Both the position numbers and the translations under genes were made by a program. From Candidatus Saccharimonadota bacterium (GTDB taxonomy: Bacteria; Pseudomonadota; Gammaproteobacteria; Enterobacterales; Enterobacteriaceae), in the NCBI GenBank assembly GCA_015134435.1, contig CP043989.1:120001-152000 (forward strand): 32,000 bases of DNA, given 5' to 3'. Below the pieces are notes generated by a model. It made no database searches and was not told where the DNA came from. It saw only the letters and a list, made by a program, of their open reading frames with translations. Positions 3,691 through 15,133 of the stretch are shown here, piece after piece. Within the stretch, counting starts at the first letter, position 1, and every line of letters begins with the position of its first letter.

Positions 3691-5403
3691 TTATATATTT
3701 TTTAAAATTGGTATTCCTAGAATATATAATGATATTTTAATTATTTTTCCTATTATTGATATTAATTTTAATTTACTTTTTTTTTTTTTAATATTTTTTA
3801 AATTATAAATATTTTCTAATTCATAAAATTTTGAAAAATATATTGTTAAATTATATAAATATTTACATATTTCATGTGTAGTTCCATTTTTATATGATTT
3901 TTTTATTATTTCTTCAAAATTTAATATTTTTTTAGATATTATTAATTCTATTTTATTAGATATATAAAAATTATTATTTAATATACATTTAGTTATATTA
4001 GTATTATTTTTTTTTAGTAAAGATAATATTCTTGTATATGCATATTGTATATATGGTCCAGTATTATTTTTTAATAAAATTATTTTTTTAAAATTAAATA
4101 TATAATTTTTTGTTCTTTTTTTAGATAAATCCATATATTTTATAGCTCCAATTGCTATTTTTTTTGATATTCTATATATTTTTTGTTTATTATATATATA
4201 TTTATATTTTTTAAAATATTTTTTTTTTATATATTTTATAGTTTTTTTAATTATTTTTTTTAATTTTATATTTTTTCCTTTTCTTGTTTTAAATGGTTTT
4301 TTATTTTTATTTAATATATTTCCAAAATAATAATGTATTAATTTTATTTTTTTTGGTATATATTTAGCTTTTTTTGTTATTAAAAATATATTTTTCATAT
4401 ATTCTTTTTGTCTTATATCTGTTAAATATATAATTTTATTTATTTTATATTTTTTATATCTATATTTTATACATGCTATATCTATAGTACTATATAAATA
4501 AGCACCATCTTTTTTTTGAATTATAATATTAAAATTATTTTTTTTATTTTTAATTAAAATTGTTTTTTTATCTTTTATAGCTATATTTTTTTTTATTAAA
4601 TCTTTTACTATATATTTTAATTTATTTTTATAATAACTTTCTCCAAATATATTTTTTTTAGATAATTTTATATTTAATTTTTTATATATTTTTTCATTTT
4701 CTAATATATTTATATTTATAATTTTTTTTCATATATAAATATTATTTTTATTATTATTTTGTAATTTTAATGTATTTTTTCTACATTTTTTAGCAAAATT
4801 TTTATTTTTTAAAAACATTAATTGTGATTTTTTATATATTTTTTCTAATTTTTTTATATTACATTTATTTATATTTATTTTATTTTTTTTTATTCATGTT
4901 ATTATTATTCCAAATTGATTACCTCAATCTCCTATATGATTCATTTTTATTATTTTATCTCCTAATAAATAAGATATATTTGATATACAATCTCCTAAAA
5001 TTGTTGATCTTAAATGACCTATATGCATTTCTTTAGATATATTTGGTGATGAATAATCTATTATTATTTTATTTTTTTTTTTATTTTTTATTCCAAAATT
5101 TTTTATTTTAGATTTTTTATTTATTATTTTTTCAATTTCTTTTTTTTTTATATATATATTTATTATTCCTGGTTTTATAGTATTTATTTTTTTAAATATT
5201 TTATATTTTTTTAAATTTTTTATTAAATTAAAAATTATTTTTTTTTTGTTTATATTTTCTTTATTTGATATATTTATAATTCCATAAATTTGATAATCAC
5301 TAAATTTATAATTATTTTTTATATTATATTTATATTTTTTTTTAATATTATATTTTTTTAAAATTTTTTTAATTTCTTTTTTTATTATATTTTTAATATT
5401 CAT
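3691..5403 (-). CDS. argS: Arginyl-tRNA synthetase
   Basis: ORF pieces 4924..5403 and 3691..4398 are in the same frame and are joined through TGA codons. The HIGH region is PNISKEMHIGHLRSTILGD. The C-terminal anticodon-binding region is typical of ArgRS. About 570 aa. Confidence 0.9.
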
Positions 5404-5515
5404 AATTTATATTATATTATTTATAATTTAATTTTAATTTATTTATTATTTTAATTTTATTAATATATAATAAAATATTATATTATTTTTTAATTATAAA
5501 TAATTGAGTTATATT

Positions 5516-7168
5516 ATGAATATTTATTGTAATGATTTAAAAATTAAAGATATTGATAAAGAGGTAAATTTATTTGGTTGAGTAAATAATATAAAATTAT
5601 TAAAAAATATAATTTTTATAGATTTTAGAGATATTAGTGGTTATATACAAATTTTATGTAAAAAAAATATTGTTCATTTATGAAATGATATTTTATTATT
5701 AAATAATGAATCTTGTATTGAAGTATTTGGTATAGTAAAAAAAAAAGATAAATTAAATATAGAAATATTAGCTTATTATATAAATGTATTAAATTATTCT
5801 ATTTCTTTACCTTTAGATATAAATAATATTAATAATTCTGAAAATATTAGATTAAAGTATCGTTATTTAGATTTAAGAAGAAGAGATATGTTAAATGTAG
5901 TTAAATTAAAATCTAATATTAAATTTTTTATTAATAATTTTTTTTTTAAAAGAAATTTTATAGAAATTGAAACTCCTTTTTTATCTAAATCTTTTTATGA
6001 GGGTGCTAATAGTTATAAAATTATTAGTAGAATATATAAAAATAAATTTTATTCTTTACCTCAATCTCCTCAAATATTTAAACAATTATTAATGATTTCT
6101 GGTATAAATAAATATTATCAAATTGTAAAATGTTTTAGAGATGAAGATTTACGTTCTGATCGTCAACCAGAATTTACTCAATTAGATATTGAAATGTCTT
6201 TTGTAGATTTTGATGTATTATTTAATTTAATAAATAATTTAATTTTTAAAATATTTTTAAGATTTAAAAATTATAAAATTATTAATTGTTTTAATAAATT
6301 AAATTATATTGATTCTATTAATAATTTTGGTACAGATAAACCTGATTTACGTAATTCTGTAAAATATAATTTTGATTTTTCTTTATTTTTATTTAAATAT
6401 TTTTTTAAAGAAAAGAAGATAGATAATATAAAAACTATTATAATTAATAATATTTTTAATATATCTAATATAAATTTAATTTTTAATTTTTTTAATAAAA
6501 AAAAAATTAAAAATTATTGTTGTATATATATATATAATAAAAAAAATAATATTTTTAAATATAAAATTTTTGGAAATTTAAATATTAATGATTATTATAT
6601 TGATAAAATATTTTCTTATCTAAATTTATCTATAAATACTTTTATTTCTATAATTTTATTAGATGATAATATAGATAAAAAAATATTAGTTAATATTAGA
6701 GATTATTATTGTAAAATTTTTAATTTATTTAAAAATGGTTTTTATCCTATATGGATAATTAATTTTCCTATGTTTTTTTATAATAAAAATAATGATATTA
6801 GTGCTTATCATCATCCATTTACTATGCCTTTAAATATAAATTTAAATAAATTAAAATCTATTAATAATTATAATTTATTATTAGCTAATTCTTATGATTT
6901 GGTAATTAATGGTTATGAATTATGTAGTGGTTCTCAAAGAATACATAAATATTATATTCAAAAAGAAATATTTAAAATATTAAATATAGGTAATAAATAT
7001 AATTTTTTTTTAAATTCATTAAAATATGGAGCTCCTCCTCATTTAGGTATAGCTTTGGGTTTAGATAGATTAATTATGTTAATAAGTGGTTTTAAAAGTA
7101 TAAAAGATGTTATTGCATTTCCTAAAACTACTTCTGGATTATGTTTATTAACTAATTCTCCAGATTAA
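5516..7168 (+). CDS. aspS: Aspartyl-tRNA synthetase
   Basis: The ATG at 5516 is in frame with ORF 5888..7168. TGA at 5579-5581 sits at the conserved Trp (LFGW-VNN versus E. coli LCGWVNR). Motifs: LKYRYLDLRR, LPQSPQIFKQLLM, YYQIVKCFRDEDLRSDRQPEFTQLDIE, HHPFT, GLDRLIML, AFPKT. Confidence 0.95.
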
Positions 7169-7323
7169 TTTTTTTAATATTTATATTAAATTTTTAAATA
7201 AAAATTATATTTTTATAAAATTATAATAACATTATAATATAATTATATTTATAAAATTATTTAATTTTTTTTTTATTTATGTTAATATTTATTATATTGT
7301 ATTTTATTTAAAAGGTAATATTA

Positions 7324-7536
7324 ATGTCAACAAGAGTAAAAGGTAATGTAAAATGGTTTAATGAATCTAAAGGTTTTGGATTTATTACTCCTGAAAATAG
7401 TGATAAAGATGTTTTTGTACATTTTTCTGCTATTCAAAGTAGTGGTTTTAAAACTTTAACAGAAGGTCAATCTGTTGAATTTGAAATAACAGATGGTTCT
7501 AAAGGTCCATCAGCTACTAATGTGGTTCCTTTATAA
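7324..7536 (+). CDS. cspE: Cold-shock-domain protein, CspE/CspC type
   Basis: 69 aa: [56 protein letters not shown]. This is near-identical to enterobacterial CspE as I recall it. Trp is encoded by TGG here. A purine-rich AAAGG lies upstream. Confidence 0.93.
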
Positions 7537-7588
7537 TATATGTTATTTTAATTAAATTTATATTTATTGTTGTTTAGTTTTAAAAATA

Positions 7589-7652
7589 ATACTAAATTTG
7601 AATTATTTAAATATATGATTATATAATTAAATAATTCATTTAGTATTTTTTT
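7589..7652. terminator. Bidirectional intrinsic terminator hairpin between convergent cspE and the protelomerase gene
   Basis: Arm 7589-7610 (atactaaatttgaattatttaa) pairs with 7627-7646 (ttaaataattcatttagtat). That gives about 20 bp with a 2-nt bulge and a 16-nt loop. It is followed by a T-run on the plus strand and preceded by an A-run (a T-run on the minus strand). Confidence 0.6.
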
Positions 7653-7663
7653 ATAAATTTTTA

Positions 7664-9208
7664 TTATTTTATTATTTTTTTTTTAATTATTTTATATCTT
7701 CCTTTTATTTTTTTTTGATTTATATATTTTGATATATATTTTATATATCTTTGTATTAATATTGTATTAAATCCAAATTTTCTTAATAAATAATTATTTA
7801 TTAATTTTTCATCATTTTTTAAAAGTATTTTTTTTGTTAATTTATGTATTTTATATGCATCTTTTCTTTTTATTATTTTATGTATTTTTTTGTCTAATTT
7901 TATTAATTTTTTATATCTTTTATTTTTTATATTTTTTGGTTTTCATTTTTTATTAAAATTAATTAATTTAAATTGTTTATAATGTATATGACTATTTATA
8001 TTTTTATGTCCTAATATTTTATAAAAAAACATATCTTCATCGTATTTTTTTCATTTTTTATCTTTTTTAAATCATTTTTGAAAACATATACGTATATATA
8101 TTGATCTTGTATCTTTATATGTTCTTTTATTGTTTTGAAAAAAATTTTTTGCTGTTTTGTTAAATTTATTAGAAAAATAATTACTTATTTGATAATTTTT
8201 TGATAAATATTTATTTTTTTTTTTTTTTATATTATTTATAATATTTTTTAATATTTTATTATTTCTTAATTTTTTTATTTTTTTTATAAATAATTTTGAA
8301 TTATATAATAAATATATATTATATTTTTTTTTTTTATTATTTTTTGCTTGACCTTTAAATTGTATTTTATTTTTTTTATATATATATTTAAATTTTCCTA
8401 ATTTAATTATTTCTATCATTCTTCTTCCAGATACTGCTGATAATGCAAATGATAAATAAGATATATTTTTTATGTTATTTAGATTTATATTTTTATTTAA
8501 TATATTATATATTTCTTGTAAATAATTTTTATAATTTATTGTTATTGAATTAATTTTTTTTATTTTTAATTTATTATATGAATTTTGTTTTGAAATTAAA
8601 AATTTTCTTTTTTCTACTTTTAAATGAAATAATATTTCATGATTTATTTTTATATTTTTTATTTTTTTTTTAATTATTTCTCCTTGTTGTATTTTATTTA
8701 TAATATATTTATTTGATGAATATCATTTTTGATTTATCATATTTGTAAGTTCTTTTTTTCATTCTGGAAAAATTTTTATTGATTTTTTTATTATTTTTAT
8801 ATTATTTTTTGTGGAATTTATTTTAATTTTATTTATATTTTTTATTAAATTATTGATTAATTCTAATTTTTTATATATTTTTTTGAATTCTTTGTATATT
8901 ATTTTTGTATTTTTTATTTTACTTATATAATTCATTTCTTTTTTAAAATAATTAAAATTTTTTTTTATATATTTTATTTTTCTATTTAAACTATAATGTT
9001 TTATATTTATAAATTGTTTTCTTGCTCTAGATATATAATTTATATATGTATTTATAGAAATATTTTTTTTTTTTAATTTTTTTTTAAATTTTTGAGATTC
9101 TTTTTTATAAAGAATATTTTTTTTTTTTTGTAAAATATTTTTTTTATTTTCTATTATATTTATTTTTTTAACTAATTTTTTTATTAATATATTTATATTT
9201 TTTTTCAT
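7664..9208 (-). CDS. tel: Protelomerase / hairpin-telomere resolvase, TelN/TelK family (514 aa)
   Basis: One reverse frame runs from 9208 to 7664. It has five in-frame TGA codons (low coordinates 8759, 8723, 8072, 8051, 7943) and a TAA stop at 7664-7666. It joins ORF-track pieces 8759..9208 and 8072..8419 plus two unlisted pieces. Motifs matching my recollection of N15 TelN: NTYINYISRARKQF, NHEILFHL, LSFALSAVSGRRMIEI, FKGQAK, YKDTRSIYIRI, YDEDMFFYKILGH, HIHYKQFKLINF. The candidate nucleophile is Tyr410 (codon 7979-7981). Four of the five TGA codons align with TelN Trp residues. Confidence 0.88.
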
Positions 9209-9226
9209 AATTATTAAATATTTGTT

Positions 9227-9300
9227 TATATTTTATATTGTAACATATATAATAAATATACATATGTATATTTATTATATATGTTACAATATAAAATATA
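9227..9300. repeat. Perfect 74-bp palindrome P1, candidate protelomerase target site
   Basis: Verified base by base. Arm 9227-9263 is the exact reverse complement of 9264-9300, with the dyad centre in CATATG (9261-9266). It begins 19 bp upstream of the tel start codon. The core 9229-9298 is repeated identically at 9335-9404. Confidence 0.95.
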
Positions 9301-9440
9301 TTAATAATTTATATTTTTATAATTATTAAATAATTATTTTATATTGTAACATATATAATAAATATACATATGTATATTTATTATATATGTTACAATATAA
9401 AATAATTATTTAATAATTATAAAAATATAAATTATTAATA
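9299..9440. repeat. Perfect 142-bp palindrome P2, the second copy of the 70-bp core plus 36-bp inverted flanks
   Basis: Verified base by base. Arm 9299-9369 is the exact reverse complement of 9370-9440, with the dyad centre in CATATG (9367-9372). It shares 2 bp with the end of P1. The two dyad centres are 106 bp apart. Confidence 0.95.
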
Positions 9441-9600
9441 AAAATTAATTATAAATAATTATAACAAAAATAAAAATATTTATAAAAAAATAAAAAAATT
9501 TAAAAATATAAATTATATTATAAAATTATTATAATTTAAAATAAAAAAAAATAAATGTATAATAATTTAAATTATTTTAAAAAAAATTTTATAAATAAAT

Positions 9601-9666
9601 AAAATAAAAAATACTAATGAATTATTTAATTAAAATTTACAAAAAATTAAATAATTCAAAATAGTA
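9601..9666 (-). terminator. Intrinsic terminator hairpin downstream of gapA-like gene
   Basis: 9618-9631 (tgaattatttaatt) pairs perfectly with 9646-9659, and 9612-9616 (tacta) pairs with 9662-9666. On the minus strand the hairpin is followed by ttttttatttt. The arm sequence is nearly identical to the hairpin at 7589-7646. Confidence 0.6.
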
Positions 9667-9675
9667 AAAAATAAA

Positions 9676-10677
9676 TTAATTATAATAATATATATAAGAT
9701 GCTAAATCTAAAACTTTTTCAGAATAAGCAATTTCATTATTATATCATACAACTAATTTAACAAAATTATTATTTAATAATAAAGTAGATTTTGCATCAA
9801 AAATAGAAATCAATTTTTCATTATTAAAATCACTTGAAACAACATCATCATATGTAATACCTAAAATATCACGTAAATAACTATTAGAAGCTTCATAAAT
9901 ACAAGAACATATTTTATCATATGTAACATTAGAATTTAATTTAATATTTAAATCAATTAATGATGCATTAGAAACAGGAACTTTAAAAACTATACCTTTA
10001 ATTTTTTCTTTTAAATCAGGAATTATATAATTTATATTATTAATACTATTAGTAAAAGAGGGAATAATATTATTAAAAATACTTCTATTATTACGTCAAT
10101 TTTTAACAGAAAAATTATTAACTATTTTTTGATTAGAAATAAAAGAACGTATAATAGTTATAAAAGATTCTATAATACCAAAATTATCATTTATAACTTT
10201 AAGTATAGTAGCTAAACAATTAGTAGTAGAAGAAGTACTAGATACAATATTCTGTCCATTATAATTATAATGATTAATACCCATAACAAACATAGGAATA
10301 TCATCTTTAGAAGAATTAGTAATAACTACATATTTAGCTCCAGATAAAATATGCCCATAAGATAAATCTTTAGTTATAAAAACACCAGTAGATTCAATTA
10401 CTATATCAACATTAAATTTATTTCATGGAATATTTTTAGGTTTATCAAAAGAAGTAATATAAATCTTATTATTATCAATTAATAAATAATCATTTTTAAA
10501 ATCAATTTTACTATTAAATTTTCCATAAATTGAATCATATTTTAACATATAAGCTATATAATTAATTTTTAATAAATCATTAATAGCAACTATTTTAATA
10601 TTTTTTCTATACTGTGAATTACGAAATATTAATCTTCCAATCCTACCGAAACCATTTATACCTATTCTAATAGTCAT
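9676..10677 (-). CDS. gapA: Glyceraldehyde-3-phosphate dehydrogenase homologue with substituted catalytic Cys and His
   Basis: 333 aa, collinear with E. coli GapA without gaps. Matches include [49 protein letters not shown]. There are three in-frame TGA codons at conserved Trp positions. A strong GAGG Shine-Dalgarno sequence lies upstream. The active-site motif reads [10 protein letters not shown] where GapA has SNASCTTNCL. Confidence 0.85.
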
Positions 10678-14974: not shown

Positions 14975-15047
14975 CACATCTGAGAGGATTCGAACCCCTG
15001 ACAACTCGGTTCGTAGCCGAGTACTCTATCCACTGAGTTACAGATGT
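14975..15047 (-). tRNA. argV: tRNA-Arg (anticodon ACG)
   Basis: Cloverleaf read by hand. The acceptor is ACATCTG/CAGATGT and the D arm is ACTCAGTGGATAGAGT. The anticodon stem is CTCGG/CCGAG with loop CTACGAA. The T arm is AGGGGTTCGAATCCTCT. No CCA is encoded. This is a GC-rich island. Confidence 0.92.
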
Positions 15048-15049
15048 AA

Positions 15050-15133
15050 CGATGAGAGAGGGATTCGAACCCTCGATGTTTTAAACATGCTCCCTTAGCA
15101 GAGGAGTACCATAAACCACTCGGTCATCTCACC
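15050..15133 (-). tRNA. serV: tRNA-Ser (anticodon GCU), class II with long variable arm
   Basis: The acceptor is GGTGAGA/TCTCATC and the anticodon loop is CTGCTAA. The variable arm is catgtttaaaacatc and the T arm is GAGGGTTCGAATCCCTC. It lies 2 nt upstream of tRNA-Arg, the same order as E. coli serV-argV. Confidence 0.9.

Follow-up and report, generated by a model that had tools for sequence, protein, structure and literature searches.

A TelN/TelK-type protelomerase gene beside telRL-like palindromes in Candidatus Stammera capleta points to a probable linear chromosome with hairpin ends

RESULTS

The tel gene and its product

We analyzed a 32,000-nt stretch of contig CP043989.1 (positions 120,001 to 152,000; here called the window), in which the reverse-strand gene tel encodes a phage-type protelomerase and stands beside two abutting palindromes. 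The DNA belongs to Candidatus Stammera capleta, a pectinolytic gut symbiont of leaf beetles of the tortoise and hispine groups, and the strain has the smallest Stammera genome, 212.7 kb (size from PMC11842425). The features at the locus, numbered from the first letter of the window, are as follows.

7664..9208, minus strand: tel, TelN/TelK-type protelomerase (telomere resolvase) gene; 514 codons plus stop with TGA read as Trp (table 4); points inward, away from the palindrome
9227..9300, unstranded: perfect palindrome P1; 37-nt arms; dyad at 9263/9264, 55 nt upstream of the tel start codon
9299..9440, unstranded: perfect palindrome P2; 71-nt arms, 142 nt in all; dyad at 9369/9370
9229..9298, unstranded: copy 1 of a 70-nt tel-site core, identical to 9335-9404; half-sites TGTAACATATATAATAAATATAC at 9239-9261 (plus) and 9266-9288 (minus)
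9335..9404, unstranded: copy 2 of the core; half-sites at 9345-9367 (plus) and 9372-9394 (minus)
9264..9369, unstranded: inter-dyad stretch of 106 nt; consists wholly of exact reverse complements of both outer flanks with a 2-nt overlap and holds nothing unique

Translation of 9208..7664 with table 4 gives one intact open reading frame (ORF) of 514 codons, as an earlier note on this DNA, made from the letters alone, had proposed. Five in-frame TGA codons (residues 150, 162, 386, 392, and 420) break it into six segments under table 11; the note had counted four pieces, a minor slip. In a phmmer alignment, four of the five stand where TelK has Trp (the note had claimed this for TelN), and the fifth stands at a Phe. 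The Trp codons of 23 window genes comprise 61 TGA and 6 TGG, which supports code 4, and Stammera genomes are annotated with that code (García-Lozano preprint).

The assignment to the protelomerases is supported by profile, sequence, and structure comparisons. A phmmer search of all PDB chains returned TelK (2v6e_A) with an E value of 7.8e-83, residues 26-498 of the query aligning unbroken over 473 residues to 58-534 of the chain. Three TelK domains of Pfam exceeded their curated 27-bit cutoffs, namely PF16684 ResT-TelK_cat (9.8e-22, 77.8 bits), PF20849 TelK_muzzle (2.8e-9, 37.5 bits), and PF20818 TelK_stirrup (5.1e-7, 30.2 bits), and TelK_N (PF22853) scored 21.2 bits, under its 28-bit cutoff. 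The phage records matched by tblastn were annotated protelomerases only (N15, phiKO2, PY54, VP882, and others). Every motif block that the earlier note had quoted is present, and the enzyme shares with TelN of N15 and TelK of phiKO2 (as with Tel of PY54) the family, the catalytic residues, and the domain order of N-terminal core, muzzle, catalytic domain, and stirrup, at 30 to 37% identity to TelN/TelK over about 470 residues. When Stammera Tel was aligned with TelK and TelN, both translated from their own records, TelK residues R275, K300, R383, H416, and Y425 fell on R263, K289, R368, H401, and Y410 of the window protein, so that the catalytic set predicted from the letters is complete; this R-K-R-H-Y pentad is kept in 27 of 28 Stammera Tel sequences. 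An AlphaFold2 model of the window protein, based on 18 homologues, reached a predicted local distance difference test score of 89.1 and a predicted template modeling (TM) score of 0.79. Compared with the PDB by Foldseek, the model found the TelK-DNA complex (2v6e_A) first, with TM scores of 0.72/0.70 and an E value of 6.8e-28; TelA and ResT came next. On all criteria of sequence and fold, Stammera Tel is a member of the TelN/TelK family.

At 514 amino acids (aa), the protein is shorter than TelN (631 aa) and TelK (640 aa); as the earlier note had remarked, it lacks their C-terminal region of about 120 aa. The crystallized TelK chain is also without that region, and TelN can do without its C-terminal domains in end protection (PMC12624138). 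NCBIfam has no model that matches Stammera Tel, and PHROG 5272, which does match (E = 6e-103), is labeled "unknown function"; automatic annotation would therefore leave tel as a hypothetical gene, which helps explain, in part, why it went unremarked.

Palindromic sites upstream of tel

The 467-nt spacer between tel and gapA has 4.3% G+C, and between the tel start codon and the first of its two palindromes the distance is 19 nt. When the window was shuffled 100 times with its dinucleotides preserved, no perfect arm exceeded 16 nt, and the next longest real arm in the window is 14 nt. The half-site TGTAACATATATAATAAATATAC has four matches in the window, all of them inside the palindromes, with 0.02 expected. 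Between the two dyads, the reverse complement of the tel-side flank comes first and that of the gapA-side flank follows, and the terminal 35 to 37 nt of the two presumed chromosome ends are identical. The earlier note, whose interpretation stands in all material points, was incomplete here: it overlooked the palindromic target sites at 9227-9440 and thus also the likely reason for the retention of tel, namely, a linear chromosome with hairpin ends.

The core resembles the phage target site telRL. Written in register from the dyad, the half-site is TATTGTAACATATATAATAAATATACAT in Stammera, TATCAGCACACAATTGCCCATTATACGC in N15, and TATAGTAACAATTACTACCATTATACAC in a Xenorhabdus prophage, the last being closest to Stammera (18 of 28 positions). 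An outer block at -25..-19 reads GTAACA in Stammera, CAGCACA in N15, and AGTAACA in Xenorhabdus, and the inner block TATAC at -7..-3 of the Stammera half-site is as in telO of N15 and phiKO2. The central 6 bp differ, being AT-rich in Stammera (CAT/ATG, the slash marking the dyad) and CGC/GCG in the phages. The annotated telRL of N15 and phiKO2 lies 165 nt upstream of tel, and other phage-plasmid loci have an equally placed palindrome. Since the core is homologous to telRL and occupies the same place upstream of tel, Stammera has retained the whole tel/telRL module and not the enzyme alone.

The length of P2 may bear on how the record was assembled. MEGAHIT, the assembler behind the later Stammera re-assemblies, has a default largest k of 141, and P2 measures 142 nt, equal to k + 1; the same 142-nt palindrome recurs in L019 (records of other strains are given by our handles). 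This is the length that a de Bruijn assembler puts out at a dead end folding back on itself. We interpret P1 as the tel-side telomere, with its tip at the dyad and 9264-9300 as fold-back read-through, and P2 as the gapA-side telomere, with its tip at 9369/9370 and 9299-9369 as fold-back read-through. The stretch 9264-9369 would then be an artificial junction of two concatenated chromosome ends, and the window would not be continuous native monomer DNA at this point.

Weak, imperfect palindromy outside the perfect arms (e.g., 9116-9499, 84%) was not accepted as a sign of a longer ancestral inverted repeat in this strain, as random pairs of window regions align at 73 to 80% too. The core had no match in PLSDB, possibly through low-complexity masking, and no Stammera plasmid with tel was found there. 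A promoter and terminator scan of 7500-9700 found no terminators and 34 promoter-like sites where 38.7 were expected, which is uninformative at 4 to 13% GC. Rfam returned nothing at the tel locus, its sole matches in the window being two adjacent tRNA genes at 14975-15133 (minus strand).

Fold-back ends in other Stammera records

All of the approximately 30 Stammera records that we examined treat the chromosome as a circle. According to the source preprint, MEGAHIT contigs (27 of 50 as a single contig) were checked and then rotated in Geneious to an oriC placed by GC skew. By such a rotation the former contig ends come to meet in the middle of the record, with tel opposite the assigned origin; in records starting at the oriC set by the authors, tel lies at 45 to 49% of the record. 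In the 32-kb window, GC skew tracks the coding strand, and the terminus is not locatable thereby.

In 21 of the 22 CP1447xx-CP1448xx records, a run of exactly five Ns occurs within tel or at most about 200 nt upstream of it. Five of the records (L010, L011, L013, L023, and L038) have the Ns flanked left and right by perfect palindromes, centered on the conserved core and with arms of 29 to 55 nt, and these N-separated double palindromes are analogues of the inter-dyad junction of the window. In six of the newer records, the two joined ends both fold back across the core and on into unique flank. The fold-back arms continue into the end-specific flank and reach the first 4 (L011), 5 (L013), or 16 nt (L001) of the tel ORF. 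The largest case, L028 (CP144799.1), has a perfect palindrome of 3,436 nt at 3760-7195 with two inverted tel copies, minus strand then plus strand; its aspS-side contig end has a separate copy of the 3' region of tel, 93.7% identical. Among the older records, 7 of 10 start or stop at tel, and L035 starts exactly with the core. The Logan contig L002, assembled at k = 31, ends about 10 nt beyond the dyad, which, k being smaller than the core, fits a linear and a circular molecule alike.

Distribution, age, and selection

An orthologue scan covering one genome per species found tel in about 30 Stammera capleta chromosomes of 240 to 314 kb each; with the window strain, the genomes span 212 to 314 kb. 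The proteins share 42 to 94% pairwise identity, and within this range at least 17 strains have a full-length ORF. Stammera Tel proteins are monophyletic in all of 100 neighbor-joining (NJ) bootstraps, and their sister group in the NJ tree is the Tel of N15-like phage-plasmids from Enterobacterales and Orbales. Pairwise identities of Tel and AspS are correlated (r = 0.92; Mantel 0/2000), with equal mean values (55.5% and 54.0%). Ratios of nonsynonymous to synonymous substitution rates (dN/dS), calculated by the Nei-Gojobori method for eight strain pairs, were 0.20 to 0.41 for tel, 0.33 to 0.62 for aspS, 0.14 to 0.39 for argS, and 0.13 to 0.64 for gapA. The gene is as A+T skewed as its neighbors, with 9.8% GC (2.7% at third codon positions, GC3), compared with 10.0% GC for argS and 13% G+C for the window. 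Across the window, genes have a GC3 of 1 to 6%, and Lys, Asn, and Ile make up as much as 62% of residues (57% in tel).

The single clade, the codivergence with AspS, the dN/dS ratios, the base composition, and the housekeeping flanks together lead us to conclude that tel was acquired once, before Stammera diversified, and has since been under purifying selection. This agrees with the view in the earlier note of a long-resident, selectively maintained gene that is no recent prophage. We regard it as virtually certain that tel is a genuine protelomerase gene under selection. Several copies (L026, L035, L038, and L030) seem to be frameshifted, which may be sequencing error in poly-A-rich assemblies.

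Other insect-associated members of the Enterobacterales and Orbales carry tel on contigs of 1.9 to 38 kb, namely, L016 (Ca. Erwinia dacicola), L034 (Ca. Schmidhempelia bombi), and L022 (Xenorhabdus), with 33 to 34% identity to Stammera Tel over the best aligned segment. Phage-plasmids of insect-associated bacteria are a plausible source of the Stammera gene.

Gene order around tel

The neighbors of tel in the window are the housekeeping genes named in the earlier note, and no phage gene flanks it.

7324..7536, plus strand: cspE (CSD, 2e-32), inner neighbor of tel; in other strains on the opposite end or on both ends (inverted repeat)
9676..10677, minus strand: gapA (Gp_dh_N/C), first gene of the other chromosome end

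Both the window and some 30 strains have argS, aspS, (ruvC), cspE, gapA, rnhA, and dnaQ as the flanks of tel. Stammera chromosomes are otherwise highly syntenic (source preprint), but the gene order at this locus varies among strains; in the variants below, the slash stands between the two ends.

aspS-ruvC-cspE / tel-gapA
aspS-(ruvC)-cspE-tel / gapA (the window)
aspS-ruvC-tel / cspE-gapA
aspS-ruvC / tel-cspE-gapA
cspE and/or tel on both sides, inverted

Inverted repeats of 151 to 993 nt with 85 to 100% identity, which include cspE and/or tel at both ends, occur in L001, L012, L017, L026, L028, L029, L032, and L042. As the inverted copies are mostly less than 100% identical, they are real terminal inverted repeats and not read-through. 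The copy counts of tel and cspE in these records are probably unreliable; every assembly resolved across the junction has at least one of each. The variation fits a history in which one end was duplicated onto the other and copies were then lost reciprocally. Such behavior of chromosome ends is known from the linear replicons of Borrelia. The linear replicon of Ca. Phytoplasma mali shows it too (PMC2459194).

Most strains have ruvC between aspS and cspE (compare L001, 2128-2517). It is absent from the window strain (7169-7323), L011, and L019, and this Holliday junction resolvase gene has thus been lost in some Stammera lineages.

DISCUSSION

The enzyme, its site, and the fold-back ends of the deposited records are best brought together by a linear chromosome. 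We consider it likely that the Stammera chromosome is linear, with covalently closed hairpin ends, and is kept so by a domesticated tel/telRL module. The steps would be these: (i) an N15-like phage-plasmid of Enterobacterales provided the telN/telRL module from which tel would descend, and the Stammera ancestor took up this module and retained it; (ii) the chromosome would be a linear duplex closed by hairpins, and replication, starting at an origin inside the chromosome and proceeding both ways, would run around them, yielding inverted-repeat junctions, which are the full palindromes; (iii) a Tel dimer would bind each palindrome and cut both strands a few bases to either side of the dyad, forming a 3'-phosphotyrosyl link to Tyr410; and (iv) each strand would be rejoined to its own complement, regenerating two hairpins. 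That Tel would convert a palindrome into two hairpins in this way is suggested by the fold-back contig ends of many strains. In the record analyzed here, the ends P1 and P2 would each have been read briefly around the hairpin and then concatenated when the sequence was handled as a circle.

Several observations weigh against a linear chromosome. In the window, the tel-side fold-back extends only 2 nt past the core and not the 71 nt of a dead end at k = 141. L037 (CP043973.1) has one site, with one central mismatch, that joins both unique flanks as in a circle, and L008 is without any palindrome; both are most simply curated or collapsed joins. The Tel of L001 (CP144771.1, 3001-4554) is an intact ORF of 517 aa in which four of the five catalytic residues are changed (R to K, R to I, H to Y, and Y to Q), with a Tyr one position before the Y-to-Q site, and the sequence suggests that it may have lost its resolvase activity or altered its mechanism; the L001 end nonetheless has a perfect palindrome of 230 nt, with a different, (TA)n-rich center. 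Finally, fold-back contig ends could in principle be library artifacts at a real palindrome of a circular molecule.

Part of this evidence would also suit a circular chromosome with one or two telRL-like palindromes, in which Tel is kept for another task at the terminus, be it the resolution of chromosome dimers instead of XerCD/dif, the binding or protection of DNA, or a regulatory role. The single junction of L037, running from the tel flank through the core to the other flank, is what such a molecule would give, the records are labeled complete chromosomes and rotated as circles, TelN has a protective role independent of catalysis (PMC12624138), and L001 keeps the ORF of a Tel stripped of its catalytic residues. 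We nevertheless hold a circular chromosome to be unlikely. On its own palindrome, a TelK-type enzyme that is active makes hairpins and does not reseal a circle; two tandem sites spaced by 106 bp would both be cleaved, with the loss of the intervening piece. All 21 joins by five Ns sit at tel, and tel and cspE change sides between strains in a genome that otherwise holds its order. In many strains the arms run past the 70-nt core into the flank unique to one end and into the tel ORF; such a fold-back is assembled only if it is in the reads, so that there must be molecules of the types L-core-L' and R'-core-R, and these are exactly what hairpin tips read around, or replicated junctions, provide. 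An assembler emits only those fold-back k-mers that the reads contain, which speaks equally against the notion that the palindromes are pure assembly artifacts unrelated to Tel, the enzyme being real and its substrate elsewhere or absent. The 142-nt length of P2, equal to k + 1 at the MEGAHIT default, the arm lengths that differ between records, and the man-made joins would favor that notion. The core, on the other hand, is conserved across strains whose Tel proteins are only 42 to 94% identical, contains both telRL blocks of the phages including the telO-like TATAC, and always lies directly upstream of tel, like telRL in N15 and phiKO2, and we therefore judge an artifact to be very improbable.

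The least credible of the alternatives, to which we give hardly any weight, is that tel is a decaying, functionless remnant of an integrated N15-like prophage. Its phage origin, the missing C-terminal 120 aa or so, the frameshifted or partial copies in several records, and the loss of catalytic residues in L001 could be taken as signs of decay. They are set against full-length ORFs in at least 17 divergent strains, dN/dS ratios equal to those of aminoacyl-tRNA synthetase genes in the same strain pairs, a rate of divergence equal to that of AspS, and the near-universal catalytic pentad; most of the "partial" copies are truncated by contig ends or N gaps, and genomes that have shrunk to 212 to 314 kb do not retain useless DNA.

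A linear chromosome in Stammera would have partial parallels in known systems. As in the N15 prophage, tel has its palindrome immediately upstream and is read from the end inward. In phiKO2 and N15, tel has parA upstream and antirepressor genes downstream, whereas in Stammera it has no phage or partition genes nearby and is adjoined by cspE and gapA. The absence of phage context (repA, sopAB/parAB, repressor, and structural genes) indicates a domesticated gene and not an N15-like prophage. Stammera Tel further differs from its phage relatives in its low GC and its use of TGA for Trp, and it would serve a whole bacterial chromosome. In E. coli, TelN together with telRL suffices for the chromosome to stay linear (Cui et al. 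2007, cited in PMC12624138); Stammera resembles that strain in combining an enterobacterial chromosome, a TelN-type enzyme, and one palindromic site, and its ends, with tel at 45 to 49% of records started at the assigned oriC, would lie opposite the origin. It would differ from that strain in being a natural case, kept up since the symbiosis began, of 0.21 to 0.31 Mb, with evolved terminal inverted repeats.

Among cellular hairpin-telomere chromosomes, those of Borrelia (ResT) and Agrobacterium tumefaciens C58 (TelA) likewise have a resolvase encoded on the chromosome or a plasmid and dynamic ends that exchange sequence. ResT and TelA are distant, smaller enzymes, with query-normalized Foldseek TM scores of 0.25 to 0.34 against 0.72 for TelK, whereas Stammera Tel is a full TelK-type protein whose phage ancestry is recent. 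Ca. Phytoplasma mali (PMC2459194) is similar in its obligate association with a host, its reduced AT-rich genome, its terminal inverted repeats, and its closed hairpin ends, which in Stammera would be the counterpart. This mollicute has 602 kb, and its terminal inverted repeats are about 43 kb long; there, the ends are physically proven and the resolvases are candidates, whereas in Stammera the enzyme is clear-cut and the ends are deduced. In contrast to Borrelia, Agrobacterium, P. mali, and the engineered E. coli, Stammera would have tel at the very end of the chromosome.

To our knowledge, linear chromosomes with hairpin ends occur in very few bacterial lineages. Somewhat more tentatively than for linearity itself, we favor a broader proposal: that a captured N15-type tel/telRL module naturally linearized an enterobacterial chromosome and has kept it linear across the symbiosis with Cassidinae, that the Stammera chromosomes are the smallest linear bacterial chromosomes known (0.21 to 0.31 Mb), and that their terminal inverted repeats shuffle tel and cspE. 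The symbiosis has been placed, by inference, in the Paleocene (García-Lozano et al.). If the proposal is true, Stammera would be the natural counterpart of the engineered linear E. coli, and a gene from a phage would have taken on a core housekeeping role in a genome that ranks among the most reduced known. Linearity may have allowed the symbiont to drop dimer resolution and decatenation functions, making the phage gene indispensable; it suggests a route by which linearization could have relaxed the need for XerCD/dif, the FtsK translocase, and topoisomerase IV during genome erosion. In the literature that we searched, Stammera was not tied to telomeres, protelomerases, hairpins, or linearity, and an earlier mention in the Salem 2017/2020 genome papers is possible. 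The García-Lozano preprint does not mention linear topology, telomeres, protelomerases, or hairpins, and one of its supplements gave no match for telomer, resolvase, xerC, xerD, sbcC, or parC.

The compact TelK-type enzyme and its AT-rich site could serve the production of closed-ended linear DNA. Another consequence would concern the deposited sequences: about 30 "complete" chromosomes would contain an artificial junction at tel, some of them with duplicated fold-back, N gaps, and adapter or foreign DNA, and this junction would affect analyses of synteny and of origin and terminus as well as the gene counts, in which tel and cspE figure with one copy or two. L036 (CP043980.1), a "complete genome," opens with Illumina adapter at 1-39, inside tel, and in L004 (1-843, end of CP043985.1) about 840 nt precede tel, the first 260 nt of which, those inspected, are G+C-rich and unlike Stammera; the adapter and the foreign-like DNA are either contamination or chimeric sequence, placed at the ends of deposited chromosomes. 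In L005 (CP144768.1), a tandem array of the 29-nt unit TATTATTCAATTTGTTAAATTTTATTTTA at 5730-5859 runs to the contig end on the cspE side, with a palindrome at the opposite end; the array is either a tandem repeat of subtelomeric type or a dead end of the assembly.

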